Origin: an uncultured Actinomycetes bacterium
Lineage (GTDB): Bacteria > Actinomycetota > Acidimicrobiia > IMCC26256 > DASPTH01
Assembly: GCA_963755855.1 (NCBI GenBank)
Contig: CAVWLR010000009.1
Span: 538,244 to 602,243 of the forward strand
Length of the DNA stretch: 64,000 nt
Direction of reading: 5' to 3'
Of this stretch, positions 1,016-63,876 are shown one piece after another. Each line of letters begins with the position of its first letter. Position 1 is the first letter of the stretch. The position numbers were made by a program, and so were the translations under genes. The notes below the pieces were generated by a model. That model was not told the origin of the DNA. It did no database searches and was given only the letters and a program-made list of their open reading frames with translations.

Positions 1016-1869
1016 TTCACTGCACCTTCCTGCGGAGGACTGGCCATGGTCACGGGTTCGAACGCGTCCGGGAACGCAACGCTGCCCGCGGCTGCGGGGA
1101 GCATGGCCACGTCGGTCGGGATCGCGATCAACGCTTCGCCGCCACCGGCGAGCAGCGCACCCACTGCCCGGAGCGTCGCCAGGTGCTGGCACTCCACTCC
1201 CATGACACTGGCGAAGAGCTCCTTCGACGTGCTGTCGGAGAGCTGCGCGAGGTCGTTGAGGTAGGTCTCGGTCGCCACCGTCTCGAGGGCCGTCGCCAGC
1301 TTGACGACGTCGGCCGGAGTCTTCAGGTTCGGCTTCGTCTGGTTGACGACCGTCAGGTACTTCGGGTTGGGCTTCGTCTGCTTCTTGCCACCCAACGTCT
1401 TCGTCTGGGCCTGGAACGCCTGACGGTGCTCGTCGTGCTGCATGCGCGTCGTCTGCGCGAACTTCTTGACGACGGCGTTGCCGTTCTTGATGAACGGCAG
1501 GGTCAGCGCGGCGCCGTACGTGGCCACCGCGAGGACCTCGAGCGACGATGCCGTCTGCAGCATCTGCACGTCGAGCTTCTTGTCGGCGACCGCCGGAGTC
1601 GCGAGCAGCGCTGCGAGCATCGCACCGATGCCGCCGGCCATCGCACCCTTCTTCAACAGGCCGAAGTCCGTGCTTCCCAGCTCGCTCACGAGCTCGTGAC
1701 GGCTGTCGTCGAGACGCGCGGCGTCCGTCGGATCGACTTCGTCGTTCCTGGTGTCCGAGGCGTGGTCGGCGAGATCCGGCAACGTCGCCTCGTGCACGCG
1801 CATCGCGTCCGCGTGCAGATCCCCGGACTCCTCCAGCAATTCGTGGAGTCCCTGTTCGTCGAGTGACAT
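1012..1869 (-). CDS. ferritin-like domain protein, paralog of the downstream gene
   Basis: Starts MSLDEQGLHELLEE at 1869 with a GAGAGG RBS. The C-terminal ferritin-like region (LEVLAVATYGAAL, VMGVECQHLATL) is similar to the neighbour. It is the lower part of shadow ORF 1012..2712. Confidence 0.55.
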   Translation of the reverse strand: MSLDEQGLHELLEESGDLHADAMRVHEATLPDLADHASDTRNDEVDPTDAARLDDSRHELVSELGSTDFGLLKKGAMAGGIGAMLAALLATPAVADKKLDVQMLQTASSLEVLAVATYGAALTLPFIKNGNAVVKKFAQTTRMQHDEHRQAFQAQTKTLGGKKQTKPNPKYLTVVNQTKPNLKTPADVVKLATALETVATETYLNDLAQLSDSTSKELFASVMGVECQHLATLRAVGALLAGGGEALIAIPTDVAMLPAAAGSVAFPDAFEPVTMASPPQEGAVK

Positions 1870-2028
1870 CCCGGGTACCTCTCTCTGATCGTCGGTGCTC
1901 GTCAACGACGAGCGTGAACGCCAGCCCTCCCGTGCCCCGGTCGTCTTCTGGTTGTCGGGAGGTGTTCGGCACCGGGTGCGCCGTGGATGGACCTGCAGCA
2001 CCGGGGCGGGGCACCGTAGGCTCGCGGC

Positions 2029-2661
2029 GTGGGCTACTGGACGGATCGGGTGGTGCCGCGCGTCACCGACAAGATGCTGTCGAACGACGACGTGATGCAG
2101 CACCGGGCGAAGATCACCGAGGGGCTGCACGGCGACGTCGTCGAGATCGGCTTCGGCTCCGGACTCAACCTGCCGTCGTATCCCGAGTCGGTCACCACGG
2201 TGTACGCGATCGAGCCGTCGCTCGTCGCGCGCGACCTCGCAGCGGCGCGCGTCGACGACTCGCCGGTCGACGTCCGCTTCGTCGGGCTGGACGGCGAGTC
2301 GCTGCCCCTCGACGACGCATCGGTCGACACCGCGTTGAGCACCTTCACCTTGTGCACGATCCCCGACGCGGCGCGCGCACTGCGCGAGGTGCGTCGCGTG
2401 CTCAAGCCCGGCGGCACGTTCCACTTCCTGGAGCACGGCCTGTGCCCGGAGCCGGGCGTCGCGCAGTGGCAGCACCGGCTCAACCCCGTGCAGCGGCGCG
2501 TCTGCGGTGGTTGCCACCTCGACCGTCCGGTCGAGCAGCTCGTGCGCGACGCCGGGTTCGAGATCACCCGGCTCGACCACGACCTGCTCGCGGGACCGAA
2601 GGTGATGCGACCGTGGTCGTACCTCTACGAGGGCGTGGCGACCCGCGAGGAGGCGGCGTGA
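2029..2661 (+). CDS. class I SAM-dependent methyltransferase (Methyltransf_11-like)
   Basis: Motifs VVEIGFGSG and VLKPGGTFHFLEH. GTG start at 2029. Confidence 0.8.
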   Translation: MGYWTDRVVPRVTDKMLSNDDVMQHRAKITEGLHGDVVEIGFGSGLNLPSYPESVTTVYAIEPSLVARDLAAARVDDSPVDVRFVGLDGESLPLDDASVDTALSTFTLCTIPDAARALREVRRVLKPGGTFHFLEHGLCPEPGVAQWQHRLNPVQRRVCGGCHLDRPVEQLVRDAGFEITRLDHDLLAGPKVMRPWSYLYEGVATREEAA

Positions 2662-3221
2662 GCGAGCGCGAACGCGAACGCGAACGCGAGGGCGAGGAAG
2701 CCGCCGGACCACGCTGGCTCGACCCCGACGAGCGTCGCATCTGGCTGGGGTGGGTGTTCACGTCGCGACTGCTGTGGGAGGAGATCGAACGAGACCTGCA
2801 GCGCGACTCCGGGCTGTCGTTCGGTCACTACGAGATCCTGGTGATGCTCTCGGAGAAGCCCGACCGGTCGCGCCGCATGAGCGACCTCGCCGACGCGACG
2901 CAGTCGTCGCGGAGCCGGCTCTCGCACGCGGTCGCGCGACTCGAGGAGCTCGGATGGGTGCGACGTGAGACGTGCCCCACCGATCGGCGCGGCCAGGTCG
3001 CGGTGCTCACCGACGAGGGCTTCGCCGCGCTCGAGGCCGCGGCGCCGATGCACGTGGAGAGCGTTCGCCGCCACTTCTTCGACCTGCTGTCGTCCGAGGA
3101 GCGCACCGAGCTGCACGACGTCCAGATGACGCTCCTCGACCACCTGCTCCCGATGGCCAACGCGCGCGGCGACGTGCGCTCGAAGCTCCTCGAAGAAGCC
3201 CGTGCGCAGCTCGACGGCTGA
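2658..3221 (+). CDS. MarR family transcriptional regulator
   Basis: GTG start overlaps the methyltransferase stop (GTGA). Winged-helix core: HYEILVMLSEKPDRSRRMSDLADATQSSRSRLSHAVARLEELGWVRR. Confidence 0.8.
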   Translation: MSEREREREREGEEAAGPRWLDPDERRIWLGWVFTSRLLWEEIERDLQRDSGLSFGHYEILVMLSEKPDRSRRMSDLADATQSSRSRLSHAVARLEELGWVRRETCPTDRRGQVAVLTDEGFAALEAAAPMHVESVRRHFFDLLSSEERTELHDVQMTLLDHLLPMANARGDVRSKLLEEARAQLDG

Positions 3222-3236
3222 ACCGGCCTGACGCCG

Positions 3237-4457
3237 GTGCGCATTCGGAGCGGGGGGCTGCTCCCCTACTGCATCGTCGCCGGGAGCATGTCGCTCGGGT
3301 ACGGGTCGATCTACACGTTGCTCGCCGACCTGCGCGACCGCTACGGGTTCACCGAGGCCCAGCTCGGTTACATCGTCGCCGCCGGGTTCCTCGCCGGCTT
3401 CGTCACGCAGCTCGCGCTCGCCCGCCTCGCCGACCGCGGCTACGCGCCGCTGCTGGTGCACGGCGGGATCGTGCTCGCCATGGGGGCGATGATCGGCAGC
3501 GCCCTGGCCACCGAGTTCTGGGCGTTCCTCGTGGCGCGGCTCCTGCTCGGTCTCGGCAGCGGCGCGGTCGGACCGGCGATCCGGCGCATCGTCATCACGC
3601 GCGACCCCGACGCAGTGGGGGCCAACCTCGGACGCCTCGCCGCGTTCGACGTCGCCGGCTTCATGCTCGGGCCCCTCGTGGCCGCGGTCGTGGCCGAGGC
3701 GTTCGGCATCCGCGCCCCGTTCCTGTTCCTCGCGGTGGTGTTCGTCGGCGTGCTCGCGCTCGCCGTGCGCCTCGACCTCACCACCGGCGTCGCCGGCGCG
3801 GGCGGCGGCCGGGCGCTGCGATCCCTGCTCGTGCGGCCTGCGATCCAGGCGACGCTCGCGGCGAGCATCGCGTTCTACCTGACCGTCGGGATGTTCGAGG
3901 CGATCTGGGCGGTGTTGCTGCGCGACCACGGCGCCGAGACGTGGCTCATCGGGCTCACCCTGTCGATGTTCACGCTCCCCATGATCTTCCTCGCGCCGAT
4001 CGGCGGACGGAAGGCGCAGTCCCGCGGACCGTTGCGGGTCGTCGCGGTCAGCCTCACCGTGGCGACCGTCTGCACCTTCTCGTACGGCGTGCTGCCGAGC
4101 CTGTGGATGCTGCTGGCGGTGTCGCTGGTGCACGCGGTCGCCGACTCGTTCACCATGCCGAGCAACCAGGTGGCCGCCGCGCTCGGGAGCCCACCCGAGC
4201 ACCTCTCGGCGGCGCAGGGGCTCCTCGGGGCCACCGGACTCGCGGCCGCGGGCCTCACCGGGCTGGTCGCGGGGTTCGTGTACGAAGAGGCGGGCCGCTT
4301 CGCCGTCTGCACCGGCACCGCCGCCCTCATGCTCGTGTTCCTCGGGATCGCGCTCACCCTCGGCCGGCGCGACCTCGCCGACACGCCCGAGATGGTGGGC
4401 ACCGACGCGCCGCTCGCCCCCGACGCCATCGGCAGTGGCGTCCCCGACCTTCCCTGA
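3237..4457 (+). CDS. MFS transporter
   Basis: 406 aa and polytopic, with an MFS-type G-x-LaDRxG motif (LALARLADRGY). Confidence 0.8.
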   Translation: MRIRSGGLLPYCIVAGSMSLGYGSIYTLLADLRDRYGFTEAQLGYIVAAGFLAGFVTQLALARLADRGYAPLLVHGGIVLAMGAMIGSALATEFWAFLVARLLLGLGSGAVGPAIRRIVITRDPDAVGANLGRLAAFDVAGFMLGPLVAAVVAEAFGIRAPFLFLAVVFVGVLALAVRLDLTTGVAGAGGGRALRSLLVRPAIQATLAASIAFYLTVGMFEAIWAVLLRDHGAETWLIGLTLSMFTLPMIFLAPIGGRKAQSRGPLRVVAVSLTVATVCTFSYGVLPSLWMLLAVSLVHAVADSFTMPSNQVAAALGSPPEHLSAAQGLLGATGLAAAGLTGLVAGFVYEEAGRFAVCTGTAALMLVFLGIALTLGRRDLADTPEMVGTDAPLAPDAIGSGVPDLP

Positions 4458-13549: not shown

Positions 13550-13567
13550 ATTTCCAGGGGGGCCACC

Positions 13568-15011
13568 GTGAACATCGCCATGATCCTCGAGATGGCGGCC
13601 GACGCCCTCGGGGACCGACTCGCCTACGGCACCCGCGCCGACGGCCTCTCGTACGAAGCCCTCCGGGCCGCTGCCCGCGGCATCGCCGACCGGGTCGACG
13701 GCACCGGCGCCGAGCGCCTGGCGCTCATGGAGTCGAACGCGCCGATCGTGCCCGCGACGCTCTTCGGCGCCGCCTGGGCCGGGGTGAGCTACGCGCCGCT
13801 CAACTACCGCCTCCCGGAGGCCCAGCTCGAGGCCTTGTTGGGCCGCATCGAGCCCGCGGTCGTGTCGGCGCCGCACTGGCTCGACAACAAGGGCACCAGC
13901 GAGCGCGCGTTCCCCGACGCACCCGAGGCCCCGGCGGTGCTGCTCTTCACCAGCGGCACGTCGGCCGAGCCCAAGGCCGCGATCCTCGAGCACGACCAGT
14001 TGCTCGCCTACATCTTCAACACGCTCGAGTTCGCGTCGGCCGGCGAGGACGAAGCCGCCATCGTCGTGGTGCCGCCGTTCCACGTTGCCGGCGTCGCCGC
14101 CGTGCTCAGCAACACCTACGTCGGTCGCCGCATCGTGCCCGTGCCCGGCGTGCGCTTCTCGCGCCGAGGACTGGCTCGTCACCGCGCGCGACGAGGGCGT
14201 CACCCACGCCATGCTCGTGCCCACCATGCTCGGCAAGATCGTCGAGGCCATGGAGGGCGACGAGTCGCTGCGGGTCCCGACGCTGCGGGCGCTCTCGTAC
14301 GGGGGCGCCAAGATGCACCCGTCGATCCTGCGGCGCGCGCTCGTGCTCTTCCCCGAGGTCGACTTCGTCAACGCCTACGGGCTCACCGAGACGAGCAGCA
14401 CCGTCGCCATCCTCGGACCCGACGACCACCGCCTCGCCCTCTACAGCGACGAGCCGCTCTTCACCGCCCGCCTCGGGTCGGTGGGCCAGCCGGTCCCGGG
14501 CATCGAGTTCCGCATCGTCGACGGCGAGGGCGCCACGCTCGGTCCCGACGAACCGGGCGAGATCCTCATCAAGGGCGACCAGGTCGGCGGCAAGTACGTG
14601 GGCACCGACTCGAAGGTCGACCCCGACGGGTGGCTCCACACCGGCGACCGCGGCTGGCTCGACATCGAGGGCTACGTGTTCTGCGAGGGACGCGCCGACG
14701 ACACCATCATCCGCGGCGGCGAGAACATCGGCCCCGCCGAGGTGGAGGACGCGCTCCTGCAGCACGACGCGATCTCGGTGGCCGCGGTGGTGGGTCTCGC
14801 CGACGAGCAGTACGGCGAGAAGATCGCGGCGATGATCTCGTTGCGCCCCGGTGTCGACGAGGTCGACCTCGACGCCGTCCGCGACTGGACGCGCGAGCGC
14901 ATCGGCGGTCTGAAGGCCCCGGAGATCATCGTGGTGGTCGAAGAGGTCCCGCAGACCGCCACGGGCAAGCTCCTCCGCCGCGAGGTCAAGCGGCTCCTCG
15001 AGGAGAACTAG
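13568..15011 (+). CDS. fatty-acid--CoA ligase (AMP-binding), single frameshift near 14160
   Basis: The N-terminal part (..PPFHVAGV..) is in the frame of ORF 13568. The C-terminal part (AEDWLVTARDEGVTHAMLVP ... GKLLRREV) is in the frame of ORF 14085. Joining them needs a 1-nt indel. Confidence 0.7.
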
Positions 15012-24546: not shown

Positions 24547-26590
24547 GTGCCACTGCCGCGCGGCCGAACGGCGTGCACCTGGGTCGTGGCGACGGTGGCG
24601 TTCCTGCTGCTGGTGCAGGTGCTGTGGGGACCGCCGGCGGGCATCGTCGTGCAGGGCGCGCTGCTCGGGGGCCTCGAGCGCGCTGCTCGCACTCGGCCTC
24701 GCGCTCGTCTACCGCGCCCACCGCATCCTCAACTTCGCCCAGGGCGACCTCGGTGCGGCACCGGCGTCGCTCGCGGTCCTGCTCGTCGTCACCAGCGGCG
24801 CCAGCTGGATCGTCGCCTTCGTCGCCGGGCTCGCGACCGCGGTCGTGCTCGGAGTGGCGGTGGAGATGGTGGTGATCCGGCGGTTCTTCCGGGCGCCGCG
24901 CCTCGTGCTCTCGGTGGCGACGATCGGCCTGGCCCAGGTGCTCGCCGGTCTCGGGCTCCTCCTGCCCGGCTGGTTCGGGGTCGACCTGCCGCCGCAGAGC
25001 TTCCCGGCTCCGTTCGACGTCTCGTTCACCGTCGCGCCGCTGCGCTTCGGCGGCAACGACGTGGTGGCGCTCATCGTGATCCCGCTCGCGTTCGTCGGTC
25101 TCGCCCTGTTCCTGCGCACGCGCTTCGGGTTGGCGATGCGGGCGTGCGCCGACGACGTCGACCGGGCCGCCCTGGTGGGGATCCCGGTGCGGCGCGTGCA
25201 CTCGGTGGTGTGGGCGATCGCCGCGCTCCTCGCGTTCCTGGCCGTGTTCCTGCGGGCCGGGATCGTCGGCCTGTCGCTCGGCACCGTGCTGGGTCCGGCC
25301 CTCCTCCTCCCGGCGCTGGCCGCCGCCGTCATCGGACGGATGGAACGGCTGCCGACCATCGCGGCGGCGGCGATCGCGCTGGGCATCGTCGAGCAGTCGG
25401 TCCTGTGGGGGTGGAACGAGCCGAGCGACGTGTACCCCGTGCTGTTCGTGGTCGTCGTGGTCGCGGTCTGGTTCACCCCGGTCGGCGCCGGTCTGCGGAC
25501 CCGGCTCGAGTCGTCGACCTGGCGCGCGGTGCGCGAGCCCCGACCGATCCCCCGGCAACTCGCCCGACTGCCCGAGGTGCGCATCGCGAGGGCTGCGCTC
25601 GTGACCGCGGTCGTCGTGGCACTCGCGCTCGTCCCGGTGGTGTTCACCGAGAGTCGCACCAACCTCGCCGCGGTCGCAGTGGTGTACGCCGATCATCGCG
25701 CTCTCGCTCGTGGTGCTCACCGGCTGGGCCGGCGAGATCAGCCTGGGTCAGATGGCGTTCGTGGCCGTGGGCGCGGCAGTGGGCGCGTCGCTCACCGCAC
25801 GCCTCGGGTGGGACCTCGCACTCGGACTCCTCGGTGCGGGGGTGGTCGGTGCCGCACTGGCCGCGCTCATCGGGCTCCCCGTGCTCCGGCGACGCGGCCT
25901 CACGCTCGCGGTCGTCACGCTCGCGTTCGGGTTGGCCACGAGCGCCTGGCTGCTGAGTCCCCGGATCTTCGGCGACGGCACCCGCTTCGACTGGCTGCCG
26001 CCGGCACGTGTCGAGCGCCCCGACCTGTTCGGCGTGATCGACGTGCGTTCCGAGTCGAGCTACTACCTCCTCTGCCTGGTCGCGCTCGCGCTCGTGATCG
26101 TCGCCGTCGTCGGGATCCGTCGCAGCCGCACCGGGCGCGCGTTGGTGGCGATCCGCGAGAACGACCGCGCCGCGAGCGCGTTCGGCGTGAACCCGCGCAC
26201 CACCACCCTCGAGGCCTTCGCGATCTCGGGGTTCCTCGCCGCGTTCGCCGGCGCGCTGTTCGTGCACCAGCAGAACGGGCTCCAGATCGACTCGTACAGC
26301 GCGGGCGAGAGCCTCGTGGTGTTCACCATGGTGGTGATCGGTGGACTCGGCTCGGTGCCCGGCGCGCTGCTCGGCGCGCTGTTCGTGCGGGGCGTGACGT
26401 GGTGGCTGCCGGTGGAGTGGCAGATCGTGGCCACCGGCGCCGGCATGCTGCTCGTGCTGCTCGTGTTCCGCGGCGGGCTCGGCGCCGCGCTCGCCGACGC
26501 ACGCGACGCGCTGCTCCGCTCGGTCGCGCGTCGACGCGCGATCGCCGTCCCTGCGCTGCTCGGCACGACGGCGCCGCGTTCCCGGAGCGA
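24547..26590 (+). pseudogene. fused LivH-LivM-type branched-chain amino acid ABC permease, at least 2 frameshifts (about 24670 and 25700)
   Basis: The LivH N-terminus is in the frame of ORF 24547, the body in the frame of ORF 24485. The LivM part continues in the frame of ORF 25710 (VYA|IIALSLVVLTGWAGEISLGQ). Confidence 0.6.
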
Positions 26591-26595
26591 CCCGC

Positions 26596-28195
26596 GTGGA
26601 GGTGGCCGCGGCAGACCTGTGCGACGACGCGCTCCTGCAGGTCACGGGCACTCGACCGTCGAACGCGACGGCGTCCCCGTGCTCGAAGGCGTCGACCTCG
26701 ACGCGCGCGCGGGCGAGATCGTCGCGCTGCTCGGGCACCAACGGCTCGGGCAAGTCGACGCTGCTCGACACCGTCGCCGGCCTGCACCGACCGCGTCGCG
26801 GTCACGTGACCATCGACGGCGTCGACACCACTCGCATCCGGACCGAACGACTCGTCGCGCGCGGTGTCGCCGAGGCGCCGGCCGACCACGGCGTGTTCCC
26901 GTCGCTCACCGTCGCGCGAGCACCTGCGTCTGGCCGTCTGGCAGGTACCCGACCGCGTGGCGTCGCGCGCGGCCTTGGCCGACGCGCTCCTGCTCTTCCC
27001 CCGGCTCGAGGAGCGCGCGGGTCAGCGGGCGGGTGACCTCTCGGGCGGCGAGCAGCACATGCTCACCCTGGCGATGGCGCTCGCGGCCGCGCCCGCGCCT
27101 CCTCCTCGTCGACGAGCTGTCGCTCGGCCTCTCGCCCGAGGCCACCCGCAGGGTCCACGAACGGCTGCGAGCGCAGCGCGAGGCCGGGGTCGCGGTGGTG
27201 GTGGTCGAGCAGTCGATCGACCGCGCGATCGAGCTGGCCGACCGTGCCGTCTTCCTCGACCGGGGCGCCGTCCGCTACTCGGGGCCGCCCGCCGGGCTGC
27301 TCGAGCGCACCGATCTCGTGCGCGCGACCTTCCTCGGCGCGGCGGCGGCACCGGCCGCCCCGACCGCGGACGTGACGACCGCGACCTCTGGCACCGCGGA
27401 CCAACGGTCCGCACGCACTCCGCGCTCGAGCTGCGCGACGTCGGCGTGCGCTTCGGCGGCGTCGACGCCCTCGCCGGGGTGTCGCTCGACGTCGCGCGCG
27501 GCGAGATCGTCGGCATCATCGGGCCGAACGGCGCGGGCAAGACCACGCTCTTCGACGTCGTGTCCGGCTTCGTGCGGCCCGACCGCGGCACGATCGGGCT
27601 CCGAGTCGATCCCGAACGCCCTGCGCGCGACGTGACCCACCTCGCACCCCACGCGCGCGCGTCGCTCGGTCTCGGGCGGTCGTTCCAGGACGGGCGACTC
27701 TTCCCCGCGCTGACGGTGCGCGAGACCATCGCGGTCGCGTGCGAGCGAGCGGTGCGCGTGCGCAACCCGGTCGCCGCCGCGCTGCACCTCCCCGCGGTCG
27801 CGCGGTCGGAGCGCGCGGTCCGCGCCCGCGTCGACGAGCTCGTGGAACGGCTGCACCTCGAGCCCTACGCCGATCGCTTCGGCCACGAGCTCTCGACCGG
27901 CACCCGGCGGATCGTCGACCTCGCGTGCGTGCTCGCGCACGCGCCGACCGTGCTCCTCCTCGACGAGCCTGCCGCCGGGGTCGCGCAGCGCGACGCCGAG
28001 GCGCTGGGCCCGTTGCTCACCGAGCTCCGCGACCAGCTCGGCGCCGCGATCCTGGTGGTCGAGCACGACCTCGGGGTCCTCGGCGCGGTCGCCGACCGTC
28101 TGGTGGTCCTCGACCGCGGCCGGGTCGTGGCCGACGGGCTGCCGGCAACGGTGCTCGGCGATCCCGTCGTCGTCCGCTCCTATCTGGGCAGCTGA
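26596..28195 (+). pseudogene. tandem or fused LivG/LivF-type ABC ATPases, at least 5 frameshifts
   Basis: ATPase segments alternate between the frames of ORFs 26596, 25710, 26596, 26864 and 25710. The second ATPase (GPNGAGKTT...LLLDEPAAG) reads 27410..28195 in the frame of ORF 26864. Confidence 0.6.
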
Positions 28196-28232
28196 CTCCG
28201 GTCGGGCCGTCCCACGCGCGACGATCGGCCCC

Positions 28233-29880
28233 GTGCGTCCCCTCCCCCGCCTCGCCGGAGTGCTCGCCGCGCTCGTGATCACCGGCACACTCGCCGGCTC
28301 CCTGGGGGCCACCGCCGGTCCCGCGGGCGGCCGCCACCGGCGCGCCCGCCGGCCCGCTGACCTTCGACCAGGCCAAGGCCCAGGGCAAGACCGTCGACTG
28401 GGGTCCCAACTGCGACACCACCACGGGGAAGGTGAAGGTCCCGAGCGGCTACGCGCCCCCGTGCGTGGCGCCGTGGACCGGCGGCGACAATGGCGGCGCG
28501 ACCGCACCGGGCGTCACCGCCGACACGATCACCGTCGCCCTCTACCAGGCGCAGCCCGACCTCCTGCAGCAGGCGTTCTTCGAGAACAGCGGGAGCGACG
28601 AGAGCCTGGGCAAGGAGCGCGACACCGTCCAGGACTACGTCGACTACTTCTCCGCGCACTACGAGCTCTCCGGGCGCAAGGTCAAGGTCGTCACCGATCA
28701 AGGCGAGCGGCGCGCCCGACGACGCGGTCGCGGCGAAGGCCGACGCGATCAAGGTCGCCACCGAGCTGCACGCGTTCGCGTCGTTCGGCGGGCCGGGGCA
28801 GACCACCGCGTACGCCGACGAGCTGGCCGCCCGCAAGGTGCTCTGCGTGGGCGACTGCGTGATCGCGGAGCCGCAGTCGTTCCTCGTACGGCACGCGCCC
28901 TACGTGTGGCCGACGACCGCGTCGCCCGAACAGGCGAGCGAGCACTGGGCGGCGTTCGTCGGCAAGCAGCTCGCCGCGGGCAAGGCCACGTACGCGGGCG
29001 ACGACCTGAAGTCGCAGCGACGCGTGTTCGGCGTCGTGCACTACGACGACGACGCCGGGCACGTTCGCCAAGAGCGTGAAGCACTTCGAGCAGCTGCTCG
29101 TCGACCTACGGCGTGAAGCCCGCCACCACCGTGCCGTACTCCCTCGACCTCGCGACCGCGCAGCAGGACGCGCGCACGATCATCGCCAAGCTGAAGAGCG
29201 CAGGCGTGACCAGCGTGATCCTCGCCGGCGATCCGGTGTTCCCCACCTACCTCACCAAGGAGGCGACCGCGCAGGGCTGGTTCCCGGAGTGGATCGTGCT
29301 CGGCTACGCGTTCACCGACACCGCGGTGTTCGGCCGTCAGTACGACCAGCAGCAGTGGAAGCACGCGTTCGGCGTCTCGCTCCTCCCCGCGCGCACCACC
29401 GACGACGTCGACGAGCTGGGCAACCTCATCACGTGGCAGACCGGGCACCCGCCGCCGGCCAAGACGTTCCGCGAGCTGGTGCAGGCACCGCTCGTGTTCT
29501 TCACCGGCGTGCACCTCGCGGGTCCGAAGCTGACGGCCGCGACGTTCGCAGCCGGGCTCGACCGGTTCCCGCCCGCGGCGACGACCACTCCGACGCGCCT
29601 GCACCTGTCGTGGGGGAAGCACGACATCTGGAAGGGCGTCGACCTCACCGGCGGCGACGACGCCACGGTCATCTGGTGGGACCCCGACGCCAAGGGCGCC
29701 GACGAGGTCGGGCGCGACGGCACCGGGCTCTACCGCTACGCCGACGAGGGCAAGCGCTACCTGCCCGGGCAGTGGCCGAAGGCGCACATCACGCTGTTCG
29801 ACCCGAAGACGTCGAGCGCGGTGCTCGCCACCCTCCCGGCTGCGGACCAGCCGCCGAGCTACCCGTCGCCCGCGGGCTGA
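28233..29880 (+). pseudogene. ABC substrate-binding protein (large Peripla_BP_6-like), 4 frameshifts (about 28320, 28700, 29055, 29105)
   Basis: The signal peptide is in the frame of ORF 28233. The body is spread over the frames of ORFs 28432, 28490, 29076 and 29113. Confidence 0.6.
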
Positions 29881-52684: not shown

Positions 52685-53550
52685 CGGTCACGGTCGCCGA
52701 GACCCGCACCTCGTCCTCCACCGCCAGCCAGACCGCGAGCCGGTCACCGTCCTCCACGGGGCCCTCGCCGACACCTTCGACGGCGCCGTTCCCGGCGGGG
52801 GTCACCGTGCTGGCGACGGCGACGTCGTCGTGGCGCTCGAGGCTCCCCCGGTACTCGAAGCGGGCACGCCGCACGTGGCGATCCGCGAGGCGCCGCACGA
52901 GCTCGTCCTCCACCGCTTCGAGGGACCGCGCGTTGTTGACGTGGTCGAGGATGTCGAAGTCGCCGGCGCGCAGCGACCACGGGCGCCAGGACACGTCGGG
53001 CGGCGGCGCTGCGTGGACCAGCGGGCCGCGCACGCGGCGTCCCGCAGCCGATGCTCCGTAGCGCTGGTGGAAGTCGTCGTCGAGGGCGAGCGGGCGACCG
53101 GTGTCGCGATCGACGAACACCCAGAGCGCGGCGGCGTCGACCCGCGCACCGCCGTCGCCGACCAGCTGCGTCCGGCGCTCCGCCCAGCGCGGACCGATGC
53201 CGCTGCAGAACGTGGAGAGCTCGACCACTTCCTGGTACACCGGCGTGGTCACGACCTCGAGGTCGCTCGACCGCAGCACCCACACGCCTCGCGCGTCCGA
53301 GAGCCCGGCGTCGTCGGCGTCGTCGGTGGCGACGTCCTGCAGGAAGCGCGCCGATCGCGTCGAGCCGCAGCAGGCCGCGAGCGTCGACGTCGCCGAGGCG
53401 CACCCGCCGGTCGGCACGGAACACGCGGCCGCTCGCAGGCAGGTCCACGAATTCCGTCGTCACGCCCGCATCGTCCCACGGGCCCTCGGCGAGTTGCGTA
53501 TCAAGCGGTTGCGACGGGTGCGCCGAAACACTGGGGAACGGTGTCAGCAT
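52659..53550 (-). CDS. acyl-ACP thioesterase-like protein, single frameshift near 53340
   Basis: The N-terminal half is in the frame of ORF 52744, the C-terminal half (RFLQDVATDDADDAGL...) in the frame of ORF 52659. Confidence 0.5.
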
Positions 53551-55829: not shown

Positions 55830-55874
55830 CCCGCTCGTCGCGACGAGAACTCCGAACCGTCGAAGGGAGGCGTC

Positions 55875-56105
55875 GTGGCTCGATGCAAGGTCTACGAGAT
55901 CCGAGGCCCGGACGCGAAGCGCACCGGTGGCGCGGAGCGCTGCGTCCGTGAAGCGGGCGACGAGGTCGTCCTCGAGGGTCGTCGCTTCCGGACCTGTGAG
56001 CACCACCGGAAGAAGCGCTGGGATCTCTTCGTCGACGGCGGCTGGCTCTACACGGTCGACCCGAAGGCCGAGCCGGTCAAGAAGCACAAGAAGCGCAAGC
56101 GCTGA
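55875..56105 (+). CDS. small basic Cys/His-containing protein (76 aa) with a Lys-rich tail
   Basis: AAGGGAGG RBS. High GC3. C4, C23, C42, HH then KKHKKRKR. Confidence 0.45.
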   Translation: MARCKVYEIRGPDAKRTGGAERCVREAGDEVVLEGRRFRTCEHHRKKRWDLFVDGGWLYTVDPKAEPVKKHKKRKR

Positions 56106-56176
56106 CCGGCCCGGCGGCGCTCGACCGTGTGACAGGGTCGCGGTGCTGATGGACGACGAGGACGAGGGGACGAAGC

Positions 56177-56665
56177 ATGCGACGGGTGGTCACGGGGCTC
56201 GGCGACGACGGTCGTTCGAAGGTCTGCTCCGACGGGCACGCCCCGGTCGCGTTCGCGCCGCGGCGCGACGGCGCGGGCCTGGACCGGATCGCGGGCGGCG
56301 TCGAGCCCGATTCCGGGTCGTCGGTGGTCAACGAGCTGTGGGCGCTCACCGGCGAGCCGTCGGTGACGACGGACGATCCCACGCTCGGGCTCGAGGCGTT
56401 CAGCGTCGACGTCCCCCCGGGCGAGACCCGGTGGATCATCACCCAGATGGGTCCCGGGCTCACCGCGCCGATGCACAGCACCCCGACCATCGACTACGGC
56501 CTCGTGGTGGCGGGTGACGTCGAGCTCGGCCTCGAGGACGGCTCGGTGCACCTGCACGCGGGCGACTCCGTGGTGGTGAACGGCGTCCAGCACTCGTGGC
56601 TCGCAGGCCCCGAGGGTTGCCTGATCGCCACCGTCCTCGTCGGGCTGCGCGACGCCGAGCGCTGA
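56177..56665 (+). CDS. cupin domain protein
   Basis: A C-terminal cupin-like beta-barrel reading (domain assignment is tentative). Confidence 0.65.
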   Translation: MRRVVTGLGDDGRSKVCSDGHAPVAFAPRRDGAGLDRIAGGVEPDSGSSVVNELWALTGEPSVTTDDPTLGLEAFSVDVPPGETRWIITQMGPGLTAPMHSTPTIDYGLVVAGDVELGLEDGSVHLHAGDSVVVNGVQHSWLAGPEGCLIATVLVGLRDAER

Positions 56666-56667
56666 CT

Positions 56668-57027
56668 TCAGTCGAGCAGCTCGTTCACGCGCTCGCTCGG
56701 TCGGGCGATCACCGCTCGGTCACCGACGAACACCACCGGACGCTCCATGAGCTCGGGGTGCTCGAGCAGCACCGCCACGACCTCGTCGCGCGTCGTGTAG
56801 TCGGCCGCGTCGAGCTGCAGCTCCTTGAACCGCTTGTCCTTGCGCACCAGCGCGGCGGGCTCGTCGGAGATCGCGTCGACGATGCGCTCGAGGTCGGCTC
56901 GGCTCGGGTTGGTCTTGAGGTACTCGATGACCTCGGCGTCGACGTTGCGCTCGCCGAGGATCTCGAGCGCGCCACGCGACTTGCTGCACACCGGGTTGTG
57001 GTACACGACCACGTTGTCGTCAGTCAT
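56668..57027 (-). CDS. ArsC/Spx family arsenate-reductase-like protein
   Basis: VVVYHNPVCSKSRGALEIL. Confidence 0.85.
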   Translation of the reverse strand: MTDDNVVVYHNPVCSKSRGALEILGERNVDAEVIEYLKTNPSRADLERIVDAISDEPAALVRKDKRFKELQLDAADYTTRDEVVAVLLEHPELMERPVVFVGDRAVIARPSERVNELLD

Positions 57028-57051: not shown

Positions 57052-57763
57052 TCACCGATCATCGGGGTCGGGCAACGTCGTCATCGGCGGACCCGACACC
57101 GCGCGCGCGACGCGCTCCAGGTACTCGGCGCGCGGCACGTCGACGGCACCGAGCGACGCGAGGTGTGGCGTCGTCCACTGCACGTCGAGCAGCGTGCCGC
57201 CACCCGTGCGCATCAGCTCGACCAGCGCGACGACCGCGACCTTCGACGCGTCGGTCACGCGATGGAACTTCGACTCGGCTGCGAACAGGCCACCGATGGC
57301 GATGCCGTAGAGACCGCCGACCAGCGCGTCGCGTCCGTCGTCGTCGACCATCCACGTCTCCACGCTGTGCGCCCAACCGAGTTCGTGCAGCGCGCTGTAC
57401 GCGGCGATGAACTTCTTGTCGATCCACCCGTGCGGACGCTTCGGATCGGCGCAGCCGCGCATCACGTCCTGGAACGCGGTGTCGACGCGGATCTCGAAGC
57501 GTCGCTGCGAGCGGCGCAAGCGAGCGGCTGACGTGCACGCCGTCGAGCGGGATGATCCCCCGCGGGTCGGGCGACCACCATCCGAGCGGTCCCGGTCCGA
57601 GCGGACCGCGACCGTGCAGACGCATCGGGAACAAGCCCTGGCGGTACGCGGCGAGGAGCGTGCCGGGAGCGAGATCGGCCCCCACGCCGGCGATCTCCGC
57701 GCCGTCGACCATCTGTGCCGGCGATGGCAGCTCCCAGCGGGTCGGGGGTGGCTCGAACGGCAC
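57052..57763 (-). CDS. aat: leucyl/phenylalanyl-tRNA--protein transferase, single frameshift near 57525
   Basis: GLFPM...WWSPDPRGIIPLDGVHVSRSL is in the frame of ORF 57059. RRSQRRFEIRVDTAFQDVM... is in the frame of ORF 57052. There is one extra G. Confidence 0.7.
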
Positions 57764-57850
57764 CGCACGCACGCTACCGAACCGCTCTGACCTGCGGCTT
57801 CGCGCCTCCCGGGGCCCGATTTGTGACAGGCGGCACCGACCCTTACTAGC

Positions 57851-58850
57851 TTGGCGGGATGCCGCAGGTCCGTCGAATCGGGTTCGCGCGCGCTTGTTGC
57901 CGGGCTGCTCGTGGTGCTCTGCACCACTGCTGGCGCCGTGCTCGCACCGTTCGCACACGCGCAGAGCGCGTCGAGCAACGCAACCGATCTGCGCCGCGCA
58001 AGCCGACGCGTTGTCGAGCAGGTACTTCTCCGCGCTCGACCGCGTGCAGTCGCTCGACGACGACATCGCGGCCAGCGAACAGCTGCGCGACGAGCTCGCC
58101 GACAAGGCCAAGGAAGCGCGTGACGCAGCGCGCGCACGCGCGCTCGTCGCGTACACGACGTCGGGGACGCAGCTCTCGACACTGGTCGACGGCGACGACA
58201 CGCTCGACACCGCGCGACGCGCACACCTGATCGATCGCGTCAACGCGCACGACCAGGACGTGTACGCGAAGTTGGAGAAGGCGACGCGCGCGCTGCACAA
58301 GCAGCAACAGGAGCTGAAGGCCACGCGCGCACGCGCAGGCCGACGCGCTCGACGAGCTCAAGTCGCAGGGCGCGGCGATCGACGCCAAGCTCGCCCAGGC
58401 CGAGGCGCAGGAGCAGGCGCAGACCGCGGCAGCCGCGGTCGCGGCGTCGAAGGCCGCCGAGACCACGACGACGGCAGCACCCGCGGGCGCACCCGCCGCC
58501 GCGGCCGCGCCCACGACCACCACCACGCTGGCTCCGGCACCGGCCGCGCCGGCGCCTCCGGCCGACTACTCGGGCACGCCCGGCTCGAGCCCGCACCACG
58601 ACGACCCGTTCCTCGCCTGCGTCCGCCAGCGCGAGAGCGGCGGCAACTACAGCGTCGTGAACCCGTCGGGTCCGTACCTCGGCGCCTACCAGTTCCTCCA
58701 GGCCACCTGGAACGTCACCGCCTCCCATGCCGGCCGCGGCGACCTCGTGGGCGTCCCGCCCAACGCCGGCGTCGCCGTACGACCAGGACGAGATGGCATG
58801 GACGCTCTACCAGTGGCAGGGCACCGGCCCCTGGGGCGGGGGCTGCTAGC
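57851..58850 (+). pseudogene. secreted coiled-coil protein with C-terminal Rpf-type transglycosylase-like domain (PF06737-like), 3 frameshifts
   Basis: The signal peptide, coiled-coil, CVRQRESGGNYSVVNPSGPYLGAYQFLQATWN and [26 protein letters not shown] segments lie in three different frames. Confidence 0.55.
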
Positions 58851-60521
58851 TCAGCTCGCAGGTCGATCTCCTCACCCGTGGCCGAGACGGCCCGGGTGAG
58901 CTCGAGCGCCTCGAGCAGGCGCCGGTCGTGGGTGACCACGAGCAGGGTGCCGTCGTAGCCGCCCAGCGCCTGCTCCAGCTGCTCGATCGCCTCGAGGTCG
59001 AGGTGGTTGGTGGGCTCGTCGAGCACCAGGCAGTTCACGCCCTGGGCGGCGAAGCCCGGCGAGCACCGCCCGGGTGCGCTCCCCCGGGGAGAGCGTGGAC
59101 GCGGTCCGCACCACGTGCTCGGCCCCGAGCCCGAACTTGGCGAGCAGCGACCGCGCCTCGGCGAGGTGCAGCCCGGTGGCGGCGATGAACGCGTCACCGA
59201 GCGGCTGGTCGACGGCGAACGCAGCGCGAGCCTGGTCCATCTCGCCCACCACCACGCTCGTGCCCAGCCACCGCTCACCGGCGGTGAGCGGGAGCCGGCC
59301 GAGCAGCGCGAGCAGGAGCGTCGTCTTGCCCGAACCGTTGGGCCCGACGATCGCCACCCGCTCGCTCCACCCGATCTCGAGGTCGACCGGACCGAGGGTG
59401 AACTCGCCGCGCTCGACGACCGCGCCGCGCAGGCGCATCACCACGTCGCCGCTGCGCGGCGCGCTCGCCACCTGGAAGCGCAGGTCCCAGCCCTCCCAGG
59501 GCTTGTCGACCACGTCGAGGCGGTCGATCGCGTCGCGCGTGGCGCGCGCCTTCGCCGCCTGCTTCTCCGACGTCGCGACCTTGAAGTGCCGGATGAACTT
59601 GTCGCTGCTCCGACGTGTCCTTCTTCGCCGTACGCGTGCCCTGCACCGACCACTCGCGTTGCGTGCGCGCGCGCTGTTCCAGCCGCGAACGCTCCGACCG
59701 GTACGTCGCGTAGTCCTCCTCCGCGTGACGTCGCGCCGTGGCGCGCGCGTCGAGGTATCCCGTCCAGCCGCCACCGAACTCGGTGCCCGAGTGCGAGTGC
59801 TCGTCGAGCTCGAGCACACGGGTCACGGTCCGCTCGAGGAAGGCGCGGTCGTGGCTCACGAGCACCACGCCGCCGGGCAGACCGTCGACGAAGGCCTCGA
59901 GGCGCTCCAGTCCCGCGAAGTCGAGATCGTTCGTGGGTTCGTCGAGGAGCAGCACGTCGTAGCGACTCAGGAGGATCGCCGCCAACGAGGCGCGGGCCGC
60001 TTCGCCACCCGAGAGCACGCGCATCGACGCGTCGAGCAGACGGGCCGCGAGGCCCAGGTCGTCGCACACGGCGCGGGCGCGCGCGTCGAGATCGGGCCCG
60101 CCGGCGGCGAGGTAGGCGTCGAGCGCTTCGGTGTAGGCGTCGGCGTTCTCGTCGGGCGCGTCGGCCAGCGCGGCGGCAGCGCGCTCGAGCTCGGCCTCCG
60201 CTGCGGTCACACCGGTGCGCCGCGCGAGGAACGCGAGCAGCGTCTCGTCGCGACGCTCCGGCTCCTGCGCGAGGTAGCCGACCCGCAGCGACGGTGGCGT
60301 GGCGGTGACCGAGCCGCATCGGGCGGTTCCTGCCCGGCGAGGATGCGGAGCAACGTGGTCTTGCCCACGCCGTTGGGGCCGACGACGCCGAGGCGGGTGC
60401 GCGGCCCGACCGACACGTCGACGTGGTCGAGCACGGTGTGCGCGCCGCGCTCGCGCGCGAGGTCGCGAGCGACGAGCGAGAAGGAGGACGGAGCGGTCGA
60501 GGGGTTCCGGGAGGACGGCAT
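58850..60521 (-). pseudogene. ABC-F family ATPase (two ABC domains), at least 3 frameshifts
   Basis: Pieces lie in ORFs 60207, 59275, 58872 and 58715. [40 protein letters not shown]. Confidence 0.65.
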
Positions 60522-60664
60522 GCTGATCCCAGGGTCGCGGAGAGCGGACGGCGAGCGGGGGATCAGGCGGTCACATGCGGAACACGGTAGCGCCGCGCCC
60601 ACGACGCGCTCGGCCCCATTTCGGATCGGTGGAGGGCCACCGGAGGCGCGCCGCGAGTCGTCGC

Positions 60665-61296
<632 letters not shown>

Positions 61297-61328
61297 CGTA
61301 GCCGGGACCGGCCGGTAGCCTCGCCCCC

Positions 61329-62127
61329 GTGCTGCGCCGGTTCACGTCGTTCGTCGTCTGCCTGTTCGCCCTCGCGCTCGTGCTCGCCGGGTGCGGCGGC
61401 GGTGGTGGCGACGCCACCCTCGGCAAGGAAGCCGCGTCCACGATCGCGCCGGCCACGACGGCCGCTCGCCGGCACGTCGTACATCGCCACGGTGAAGCCC
61501 GAGATCACGAAGGTCGAACGTCTACGACACGCCCGACGCCGGCGCGCCGACCCGCCAGTTCGACAACCCGTGGCTCTACGACCCGACGGTGCCCACGTCG
61601 AAGGTGCCCCAGGTGTTCCTCGTCAAGGAGCAGCGCGGACGGCTGGGTGCAGGTGCTCCTGCCGGTGCGTCCCAACGGCAGCACCGGATGGGTCAAGACC
61701 GACGACGTCACCCTGCAGGCCAACCCGTACCGCATCGACGTCCAGCTCGCCGCCCACACCATCACGGTCAACAAGGGCAACGACGTCGTGTACACCGGGC
61801 CCGGTCGCGGTCGGAGCCACCGATCCGCCGCTGCCCGACGTCGGCAAGCCCACGCCGACGCCCACCGGCGAGTACTACCTCCGCGTGCTGCTGCAGGCCC
61901 CCGATCCGAACACGGTCTACGGGCCGTACGCCTACGGCCTGTCGAGCCACTCCGACGCGCTCGACACGTTCGCCGGTGGTGACGCCGAGGTCGGCATCCA
62001 CGGCAACGACGACGCGTCGGTGCTGGGCCAGAACGTCACGCACGGCTGCATCCGCATGGACAACGCCGCCATCACGATGCTGGCCAAGCAGCTGCCCCTC
62101 GGCACGCCGGTCTCCGTCAACGCCTGA
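61329..62127 (+). pseudogene. L,D-transpeptidase (YkuD) lipoprotein, at least 4 frameshifts
   Basis: LAGC lipobox. Segments alternate across three frames. C-terminus HGNDDASVLGQNVTHGCIRMDN. Confidence 0.6.
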
Positions 62128-62326
62128 TCGATGCGCGCGCGCCTCGGCTCGCGCCGCGGCCCGGTACGGCCCGGCGCGGGCAGCAGGCCGTCGACTGGAA
62201 GACCGTCGACGTCGCGACCATGATCCGCACGTCACGACACGAGGCGAGAGGAGGCGGGCACGGCCGCCCCCACCACGCCGGCGACACCCACCGTGCGCGA
62301 CCACGGCCGAGCAGAGGGGCGAACAC

Positions 62327-63115
62327 GTGCAGATCGAGGGTGCGAACATCATCGTCACCGGGGCCTCGTCGGGGATCGGCGCCGCGCTCGGCCCGATGCT
62401 GGCGGCACGGGGCGCGAACGTGGGCCTGGTGGCCCGGCGCGCCGACCGGCTCGAGGAGGTGCTGACCGAATGCCGCGAGCACACGCCCGAGTCGCGCGCG
62501 TGGCCGGTCGACCTCGGCAACCTCGATGCCGCCGTGGAGCTCGTGCACCAGGCGGCGCGCGAGTGGGGACGGGTCGACTGCCTGGTCAACAACGCCGGCA
62601 TCCCCGCCCGCATCCCGGTGCGGCACCTCACCGGCGCCGACGTCGCGCACGTGATGGACGTGAACTTCCACGCCCCGGTGCGCATGTCGCTGGCGCTCCT
62701 CCCCGACTGGCTGACCCGCGGCGGCGGCTGCGTGGTCAACGTGTCGAGCCTCGGCGGCCGCCTGCCGATCGCCAACGAGGCCGCGTACTGCGCCAGCAAG
62801 TTCGCGCTGTGCGGGTGGACCGAGGGGATGGCCGTCGACCTCTACGGCACCGGCGTCGAGGTGAAGCTGGTGCTGCCCGGCCCCATCGACACCGAGATCT
62901 GGGACCAGCCGGGCAACGAGCCTGCCGCGTACCAGGGTCCGTTCGTGCCCGCGGCCGACGCCGCGCAGTCGGTGGTCGACGCCATCGAGGGCGAAGGCTT
63001 CGAGTGGTACGCACCGCCCGAGTTCCCCGGTGGTGGCCCGCAGCACGCGATCGTCGTCGGCAAGAGCAACGATCCGGGCGCATTCGTCGCCGCCATGGGA
63101 TCCATGAGAGCGTGA
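62327..63115 (+). CDS. SDR family oxidoreductase
   Basis: TGASSGIG...YCASK. Confidence 0.85.
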   Translation: MQIEGANIIVTGASSGIGAALGPMLAARGANVGLVARRADRLEEVLTECREHTPESRAWPVDLGNLDAAVELVHQAAREWGRVDCLVNNAGIPARIPVRHLTGADVAHVMDVNFHAPVRMSLALLPDWLTRGGGCVVNVSSLGGRLPIANEAAYCASKFALCGWTEGMAVDLYGTGVEVKLVLPGPIDTEIWDQPGNEPAAYQGPFVPAADAAQSVVDAIEGEGFEWYAPPEFPGGGPQHAIVVGKSNDPGAFVAAMGSMRA

Positions 63116-63139
63116 TGATGCCCACGTGATGGAGGAACT

Positions 63140-63876
63140 GTGAGCTGGAACGAGACCGAGGACCGTCTCTACTTCCGTCAGCTGCTGTCGGGCATCGACT
63201 TCGCTCGCGACGACGCGATGGCGCGCCAGATGGTCAACTTCGTGTACCTGGTCGGTGACCGCGAGACCGGCGAGGCCGTCGTGATCGATCCCGCGTACGG
63301 CGTCGGCGAGTTGGTCGACCTGCTCGCCGCCGACGGCCTGCGCCTCACCGGCGCGCTCGTCACCCACTACCACGCCGACCACTGCGGCGGCGACATCATG
63401 GGGTACTCGATCGAGGGTCTGCGCGAGCTCCTCGCCCTCGACGACGGCGGCGTGCCGGTGCACGTGCAGCGCGCCGAGGCCGAATGGGTGAAGCGGTCGA
63501 CCGGCGCTCTCCGACTCCGACCTCGCGCTGCACGACAGCGGCGACGTCGTGCACGCCGGCGGCATCCCGATCGAGCTCATGCACACGCCCGGGCACACGC
63601 CGGGCAGCCAGTGCTTCGTGGTCGACGGCCGGCTCGTCGCCGGCGACACGCTGTTCCTCGAGGGCTGCGGTCGCACCGACCTCCCCGGCTCCGATCCCGA
63701 CGCGATGTACGAGAGCCTCACGCGCCGGCTCGCCACCCTGCCCGACTCGACCGTGCTCTACCCCGGCCACCGCTACTCCCCCGCGGCCTCCGCGACCATG
63801 GGCGACACGCGCGCCACCAACTACGTGTTCCGCATCCCCACCCTGGAGCAGTGGCACGCCCTCATGGGCGGCTGAC
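63140..63876 (+). CDS. MBL-fold metallo-hydrolase (glyoxalase II-like), single frameshift near 63505
   Basis: THYHADHCGG is in frame 2. HTPGHTPGS... is in the frame of ORF 63549. Confidence 0.65.

Follow-up and report, generated by a model that had tools for sequence, protein, structure and literature searches.

Frame breaks clustered across six neighbouring genes of an Acidimicrobiia-like metagenome contig are probably a consensus artefact rather than gene decay

Results

Do the frame breaks that crowd one end of the window, the 64,000-nucleotide stretch of DNA analysed here, record the decay of a gene cluster or a defect of the deposited sequence? Between positions 57052 and 63876 we counted 15 in-gene frame breaks spread over six neighbouring genes: one in aat, four in an Rpf-like gene, three in an ABC-F gene, two in an HhH-GPD/AlkA-like glycosylase gene, four in an L,D-transpeptidase gene and one in an MBL-fold hydrolase gene. 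Breaks were located by Pfam domains divided across frames, by tblastn with the intact orthologs of relatives and by DNA alignments, and the count agrees with a preliminary description, which had put at least 14 breaks in less than 7 kb. Eleven are clear window-private 1-bp insertions, one is a –1 and one a –2 change; the remaining two lie at ~61800 (+1 by alignment) and in a linker, where the frame change is counted apart. The spacers within the block carry indels as well (57811/57824, 60558 and 61326), and the changes at 60558 and 61326 sit at G5/C5 runs. The features are as follows.

57052–57772, minus strand: aat (Leu/Phe-tRNA protein transferase), one frame break (Pfam, tblastn)
57518–57520: 1-bp insertion in aat, window-private (alignments)
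57860–58849, plus strand: Rpf-like secreted protein gene, four frame breaks (ATG at 57860 read directly; tblastn frame changes)
57876: 1-bp insertion (A) in codon 6 of the Rpf-like gene (alignments, direct reading)
57994: 1-bp insertion (C) in the Rpf-like gene (alignments)
58329–58330: 1-bp insertion in the Rpf-like gene (alignments)
58765: 1-bp insertion (G) in the Rpf-like gene (alignments)
58856–60521, minus strand: ABC-F ATPase gene, three frame breaks, without a stop codon at the orthologous position (Pfam, tblastn)
59055–59057: 1-bp insertion in the ABC-F gene (alignments)
59604–59607: 1-bp insertion in the ABC-F gene (~59605), placement ambiguous within 4 nt (alignments)
60317–60318: 1-bp deletion in the ABC-F gene (alignments)
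60665–61296, minus strand: HhH-GPD (AlkA-like) DNA glycosylase gene, two frame breaks (tblastn, Pfam)
60896: 1-bp insertion in the glycosylase gene (alignments)
60997: 1-bp insertion in the glycosylase gene (alignments)
61329–62127, plus strand: L,D-transpeptidase (YkuD) lipoprotein gene, four frame breaks (codon HMM, alignment with short-read-named relatives)
61463–61475: frame change in a length-variable linker of the L,D-transpeptidase (frame bookkeeping; –23 nt versus L161, the closest relative)
61517: 1-bp insertion (A) in the L,D-transpeptidase gene (alignments)
61634–61637: 2-bp deletion in the L,D-transpeptidase gene, at ~61635 (alignments)
61795–61800: 1-bp insertion in the L,D-transpeptidase gene, CCGGGCCCGG versus CCGGGCCGG (alignments)
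62128–62326: spacer with weak remnants of a 218-aa gene found in some relatives (tblastn)
62327–63115, plus strand: SDR oxidoreductase gene, intact (adh_short 2–188/195 in one frame; one tblastn HSP)
63140–63875, plus strand: MBL-fold hydrolase gene, one frame break (two tblastn HSPs, frames 2/3, joining at 63505/63507)
63506: 1-bp insertion (G) in the MBL hydrolase gene (alignments)

The coding content on either side of the breaks is well preserved. Pfam Leu_Phe_trans is divided 2–46 / 42–170 across two frames of aat, with the switch placed at 57518–57519 by tblastn with the L161 and L002 orthologs as queries. ABC_tran pieces are spread over three frames of the ABC-F gene, which gives four tblastn HSPs (frames –3/–2/–3/–1); the glycosylase gives three (–2/–3/–1), and a codon HMM divides the L,D-transpeptidase into five coding-frame segments. 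Frames were anchored on hand-chosen intact orthologs as references; choosing instead the relative whose stop-free frame was longest failed, because wrong frames stay open at 72% GC and some relatives have frameshifts of their own. Once the indels are removed, six full-length proteins with complete Pfam domains result, 67–89% identical to the reference orthologs: Aat (Leu_Phe_trans 2–170/171, 200 bits), the Rpf-like protein with its signal peptide, coiled coil and transglycosylase-like domain (Transglycosylas 10–75/77), ABC-F (2x ABC_tran), the glycosylase (HhH-GPD 1–106/108), the L,D-transpeptidase (YkuD 1–146/146) and the hydrolase (Lactamase_B 6–196/196). All six gene identities that the preliminary description had assigned were thus right. 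The ~1,800 corrected codons of the six genes hold no internal stop, and the Walker A/B, ABC signature, HxHxDH and HGC motifs are intact. The corrected ABC-F protein (554 aa) aligns along its entire length (100%) with P0001 (553 aa) at 90% identity, and also with more than 100 related protein clusters, mostly of 540–567 aa and 67–90% identical.

The SDR gene within the block had been described as intact, and so it proved, with 95% identity to L161 in its single tblastn HSP. This is unremarkable, since the probability of no break in 789 bp is ~0.11 at 2.7 breaks per kb. The L,D-transpeptidase and SDR genes flank an apparent ‘deletion’ of ~460 bp, which was considered as a sign of decay and rejected as a natural presence/absence polymorphism common to relatives: the 218-aa gene is absent in L007 and L084, and the spacer of L081 and L161 there is much shorter than the ~570–690 bp of gene-bearing relatives. 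Real structural variation among relatives also includes a cupin gene insertion at 55.8–56.7 kb and the presence or absence of DUF6624, as of the 218-aa gene.

We saw no sign of relaxed selection in the window lineage in NG86 dN/dS or in relative-rate tests. The dN/dS of the window against relatives (for example, 0.16–0.18 for ABC-F) matches that of relative against relative (0.15), and a Tajima-type relative-rate test over 1,810 block codons found 91 amino-acid changes unique to the window and 93 unique to L003, with p>0.3 in all eight block-gene comparisons and p>0.1 in all sixteen when controls are included. These results bear on the possibility of a genuine, extremely recent pseudogene island, in which a burst of single-base insertions (e.g., local error-prone repair or a mutagenic event) inactivated six adjacent genes before substitutions accrued. 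The breaks are present in the deposited sequence and locally clustered, in a region that is truly variable among relatives (cupin insertion, DUF6624, 218-aa gene, ABC-F stop loss). However, we consider such an island very unlikely, given the absence of nonsense codons after correction and the fact that dN/dS, lineage-specific amino-acid change and private substitutions are not raised.

The spectrum of the indels argues in the same direction. Bacterial pseudogenes have a known deletion bias, and the in-gene changes here are the opposite: ~12 +1 insertions against 2 small deletions, rather than deletions of varied lengths. Block density is ~2.8 events per kb versus ~0.3 per kb in a comparable 6 kb to the left, and a codon model applied ab initio to the entire window places clusters at 24.6–29.1 kb and 58.3–63.5 kb, along with six isolated candidates. 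The indels in spacers, the second dense cluster and the isolated frameshifts fit a process that is blind to gene function.

Comparing the indel positions with homopolymers, as the preliminary description had suggested, gave no association. Runs that include the inserted base are 1–3 long, homopolymers of 4 or more contain no in-gene break, and the block has 10 runs of 5, all of them clear of in-gene breaks; with run lengths of only 1–3, this is not the classical homopolymer error. A shared motif at the break sites was sought and none was found. Programmed recoding, by ribosomal frameshifting or transcriptional slippage that restores the frames in vivo, would explain why the genes are otherwise intact on either side of each break, but no site has a homopolymer of at least 4 or a shared motif, up to four breaks fall in one gene, and no site is present in any ortholog, although conservation is expected of programmed sites. 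That every ortholog lacks the sites effectively refutes recoding.

Three technical sources were also examined and rejected. The merging of two strain alleles at SNP sites does not fit, as private substitutions are not enriched beside insertions (0/13 for the window, 2/23 for the sister locus L004, ~3% expected). Nor is the block of generally low quality with substitution errors included: at otherwise invariant columns private substitutions are not in excess (61/3099 in block genes, 47/2599 in control genes). Repeats or paralogous copies that might confuse polishing amount to just two chance matches of 38–40 nt.

Relatives provide a control for sequencing technology. L161, a contig of 19.3 kb whose k141 name follows the MEGAHIT style, is 86–88% identical at the nucleotide level, has all nine syntenic genes called intact and, when aligned, points to the same window-specific insertions. 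Searches brought up no sequence of the same species: look-ups of identical proteins for the SDR, ArsC and the cupin ORF gave no hit, the best SDR match in scans of genome and metagenome contigs was 94–96% identical in amino acids, and the best match of the corrected ABC-F was 90% in a set of 5.8 billion proteins. In eighteen contigs whose names are of short-read style (JGI Ga*, MEGAHIT k141), ~33 kb of orthologous CDS contains no private frame-disrupting indel, and twelve Nanopore-only loci from Microflora Danica (MFD) MAGs contain 0.1–2.5 per kb, or 81 events in ~105 kb pooled, where ‘short-read’ refers to contig naming and ‘Nanopore’ to naming together with the MFD paper rather than to per-record metadata. 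At the pooled Nanopore rate, the probability of none in 33 kb is ~8e-12. The sister-MAG indels are mostly 1-bp insertions, clustered in genes that differ between MAGs: 18 in the MMPL gene of L004, 7 in ldt and 4 in alkA of L014, and 4 in abcf and 4 in sdr of L013. The identical signature at other loci of Nanopore-only sister MAGs, and its absence from short-read-style-named contigs, is further evidence against a pseudogene island, as is the fact that the lost functions would include clade-conserved intact genes such as ABC-F (more than 100 near-full-length clusters). MFD MAGs were assembled with Flye (--meta --nano-hq) and one Medaka round, without short-read polishing, and their authors acknowledge Nanopore-associated errors in lower-coverage MAGs (PMC12313526).

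Discussion

Evolutionary and cross-assembly evidence makes it very likely that the frame breaks are a consensus or polishing artefact and not gene decay. A local quality or coverage problem had been favoured over decay from the outset, and the present data support that view: six proteins are restored with no internal stop once the indels are removed, dN/dS equals that of relatives, unique amino-acid changes are balanced (91 versus 93), and the almost purely +1 spectrum recurs in Nanopore-only sister MAGs and never in ~33 kb of short-read-named contigs. We infer that the window itself comes from a long-read assembly. The block would then be a local patch of poor consensus in a metagenome contig of an Acidimicrobiia-like actinobacterium, assembled from long reads and most probably from Nanopore reads only. 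Scattered single-base indels, the great majority of them +1 and placed regardless of homopolymers, may have been introduced or left uncorrected by the consensus or polishing step; these would land in coding and non-coding DNA alike, each one inside a gene breaking its frame. Low depth, strain heterogeneity or polisher failure could have made the block worse than neighbouring sequence. In the organism all six genes are very probably intact and under selection.

Two observations count against a purely artefactual origin. The signature is unlike the classical long-read profile, being independent of homopolymers, almost restricted to insertions, free of substitutions and clustered across several kb. 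If the insertions were real, they would represent a localized, insertion-only burst (e.g., an error-prone repair patch of several kb) that the sampled population underwent no more than a few generations ago, at the cost of six conserved genes in a free-living soil Acidimicrobiia, a scenario that we regard as very unlikely; were it true, the same process would act at other loci in sister lineages. The second observation is the missing ABC-F stop codon, where a 10-bp gap at 58858 versus L161 leaves the corrected frame open for 47 further codons, to a stop at 58715–58717. Such a gap is atypical of consensus errors and could be real. A mixed origin, with most +1 insertions being artefacts and the ABC-F stop loss, the L,D-transpeptidase linker change and the spacer changes next to homopolymers (60558 and 61326) being real strain differences, draws on the fact that the 10-bp and 23-bp differences and the G5/C5-run changes are unlike the +1 insertions in kind and fall in regions of variable length among relatives. 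Nothing specific speaks against this mixture, to which we nevertheless assign only a very slight probability; it is compatible with a consensus artefact and alters only the number of artefacts.

With a consensus artefact as the preferred explanation, the biological weight of the block is nil: its genes are ordinary and conserved, and the organism almost certainly carries them intact. A false pseudogene island will appear in automated annotation of the contig, and statistics of coding density or of the CheckM type will be affected; 57052–63876 should be flagged or re-polished rather than interpreted. The error mode, in which +1 insertions almost alone form clusters that are independent of homopolymers and unaccompanied by substitutions, is also present in several public Nanopore-only MAGs of this clade and would be missed by homopolymer-aware correctors; a technical note to catalogue producers may be deserved.

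Three known systems resemble this locus in part. The reductive evolution of Mycobacterium leprae has left pseudogene-rich regions, and genomes of this type share with our block frame disruptions in many adjacent, functionally unrelated housekeeping genes. Real decay, however, combines frameshifts with nonsense and missense substitutions, a deletion bias and raised dN/dS, and the block shows none of that substitution load, that bias or that rise. Programmed frameshifting, as in prfB (+1) and dnaX (–1), is alike in that the frame changes within an otherwise functional coding sequence, but here slippery sequences and ortholog conservation are lacking and single genes have several sites. The closest likeness is to the gene-fragmenting indel errors of long reads (Nanopore/PacBio), in which single-base indels in the consensus split intact genes and are found through intact orthologs; these errors are commoner in low-coverage genomes, are the target of reference-based correctors such as Kastor (PMC12007338) and are acknowledged for the MFD-LR MAG catalogue (PMC12313526). 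In the published profile homopolymer deletions dominate (PMC12007338), whereas the errors proposed here are nearly all insertions, at run lengths of 1–3, without accompanying substitutions and gathered in kb-scale blocks.

Results

Between 57.5 and 63.9 kb the coding frame switches every 50–700 nt in GC3 frame plots and with two codon-model HMMs, and Pfam domains are divided among frames (Leu_Phe_trans positions 2–46 and 42–170; ABC_tran in pieces in three frames). We mapped the switches by tblastn with intact orthologs and placed the events by aligning the DNA with that of up to 26 relatives. Together with the Pfam splits, these comparisons gave 15 breaks in six genes of the block (window 57052–63876), in agreement with the "at least 14" of the preliminary description, whose coordinates and gene names for the block were all right.

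Frame breaks by gene in the block
aat: 1
Rpf-like gene: 4; its ATG is at 57860, and codon 6 holds the first break
ABC-F: 3
HhH-GPD (AlkA-like) glycosylase: 2
L,D-transpeptidase: 4
MBL-fold hydrolase: 1

The ArsC-family gene at 56671–57027 and the SDR gene are intact. The SDR had been described as intact inside the block, which our data bear out, and its state requires no special explanation: at the local rate the probability of no event in 789 bp is ~0.11.

Of the 15 breaks, eleven are unambiguous insertions of one base that none of the relatives has. The deletions are a 1-bp loss at 60317 and a 2-bp loss at ~61635, the break at ~61800 has an extra base within CCGGGCCCGG, and one break sits in a length-variable linker where the alignment gives no event type. 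Counting the inserted base, the affected runs are 1 nt (seven cases), 2 nt (four) or 3 nt (two) long, a distribution that agrees with the proportions of bases lying in runs of these lengths (0.62, 0.28 and 0.08). A comparison of the indels with homopolymers, proposed earlier as a check, revealed no association: the runs hit are 1–3 nt long, and in-gene breaks fall at 0 of the block's ten 5-nt homopolymers. No motif common to the break sites is visible. Similar small differences occur in the spacers of the block too (57811/57824, 60558 and 61326).

When the window frames were anchored on intact orthologs from the syntenic loci of four relatives (L002, L003, L006 and L009), all six genes gave full-length translations free of internal stop codons. 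The corrected proteins are 67–89% identical to reference orthologs, with intact catalytic motifs and complete Pfam domains. For ABC-F, the corrected protein aligns over its whole length with its best homologue, P0001 (553 aa), and over 100 clusters of related proteins, mostly of 540–567 aa, also match it. In every gene, NG86 dN/dS is the same for window-versus-relative as for relative-versus-relative pairs. Relative-rate tests over ~1,810 block codons counted 83–96 unique amino-acid changes in the window versus 76–99 in L002 or L003, with p > 0.3 in 8/8 block-gene comparisons and p > 0.1 in 16/16 when control genes are included, and there is no excess of private substitutions at otherwise invariant columns (61/3099 in block genes, 47/2599 in control genes). 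Neutral bacterial sequence gathers several substitutions for each indel, so 15 real indels predict 50 or more additional amino-acid changes along with a few nonsense codons. Since the data permit an excess of at most ~25 changes and contain no nonsense codon, gradual decay of the block genes is excluded. The sole biological reading that would fit is a very recent burst made up of indels alone.

The GC content is 72% over the entire window. With the intact SDR protein (62327–63112) as query, all syntenic loci found were in uncultured Acidimicrobiia/Actinomycetes MAGs, the best of them with an SDR 93–94% identical and DNA 82–89% identical across window 51.8–64 kb. Among the long relatives, most are "MFD..." MAGs from the long-read catalogue of Microflora Danica, which are Nanopore-only and were assembled with Flye (--meta --nano-hq) and one Medaka round (PMC12313526); other relatives are JGI Ga* records and MEGAHIT-style k141 contigs, whose short-read status was read from their names. 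The closest relative found, L161, is a k141-named contig of 19.3 kb that was reached via the best ABC-F homologue; it is 86–88% identical to the window in DNA, and 9/9 of its syntenic genes were called intact.

As a technology control, we counted the frame-disrupting indels private to each sequence in nine orthologous genes. The 18 contigs with short-read-style names (~33 kb in total) have none, an outcome with a probability of ~8e-12 at the pooled Nanopore rate. The 12 Nanopore-only MFD loci have 0.1–2.5 per kb (81 events in 105 kb), mostly 1-bp insertions and outside homopolymers as well, and the clusters fall in differing genes from MAG to MAG.

Clusters of private events in MFD loci
L004 (MFD00031.bin.2.112, contig_27197): MMPL gene (823–3994), 18 private 1-bp non-homopolymer insertions
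L014: 7 events in the L,D-transpeptidase gene (ldt), 4 in the glycosylase gene (alkA)
L013: 4 events in ABC-F, 4 in the SDR

The insertion-dense MMPL gene of L004 has no substitution excess, which points to an error mode of pure +1 insertions, like that in the window.

The left flank of the block is cleaner, though not free of indels, and an ab initio map placed ten frameshift candidates at 24.6–29.1 kb, 11 at 58.3–63.5 kb and six elsewhere.

Frameshifts, frameshift candidates and a spacer insertion in the window outside the block
13562–15008, +, AMP-binding enzyme: confirmed at ~14161, one of the six elsewhere and far from the dense blocks; the AMP-binding Pfam domain is split into positions 155–240 and, in a different frame, 248–383 plus the C-terminal domain
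24600–29100, liv-type branched-chain amino-acid ABC transporter genes (two BPD_transp_2 permeases; one ATPase gene with ABC_tran cut to positions 18–76 of 137): the frame switches ten times on the same strand with no stop codon
52668–53487, −, acyl-ACP thioesterase gene: one 1-bp insertion near 53351–53355, resulting in two frames
53515, spacer ahead of the MMPL gene: 1-bp insertion

Further isolated candidates lie at 16518, 16644, 41096 and 49471.

The frameshift-dense stretch at 24.6–29.1 kb is probably the same artefact as the block. With two dense stretches over a background of isolated frameshifts, the pattern along the contig is consistent with a process that depends on local assembly quality and is unrelated to gene function.

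Three structural differences lie outside the artefact; they are natural variation that some relatives share.

Natural structural variation in and beside the block
62128–62326, short spacer from the L,D-transpeptidase to the SDR: a 218-aa gene in L002, L003, L004, L006, L010 and L016, absent in L007 and L084; spacers short in L081 and L161; weak remnants retained in the window
60522–60664, between ABC-F and the glycosylase: a DUF6624 gene (161–181 aa) in L003, L006, L161 and L162, absent in the window, L002 and L004
55830–56667, left edge of the block: window-specific segment with no counterpart in relatives and a cupin-domain ORF of 162 aa (56177–56665)

No Pfam match was found for the 218-aa gene. 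In gene content, the segment at 55830–56667 marks a difference at the strain or species level: L161 carries DUF3159 and a fatty-acid desaturase at this position, and in L002–L004 ArsC comes almost directly after the MMPL gene.

The missing stop codon of ABC-F may be real or an error. A 10-bp gap relative to L161 at 58858, in the stop region 58850–58860, takes away the TAG together with the final codon before it. The corrected frame therefore runs on for another 47 codons, into the Rpf-like gene in antisense, until a stop at 58715–58717. The GCTAGC at 58845–58850 carries TAG on both strands, out of frame for ABC-F.

Discussion

The frameshift block is very probably not a real biological feature. 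The preliminary description had taken the pile-up of breaks to favour a quality or coverage problem over decay, and frame restoration, the selection tests and the technology control support this interpretation. The most likely mechanism is that the window comes from a long-read metagenome contig whose consensus is locally poor. Likely causes are read depth that is low or uneven, strains that were assembled together, or a polisher that failed or over-corrected in this stretch, with spurious inserted bases left behind. Most of the probability left beside the artefact falls to a genuine event of very recent date.

Clustered 1-bp insertions in public Nanopore-only MAGs of this clade represent an error mode that recurs in assemblies of this type and is apparently undocumented. 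The profile published for long-read assemblies is one of homopolymer deletions (PMC12007338), from which the profile of the window differs.
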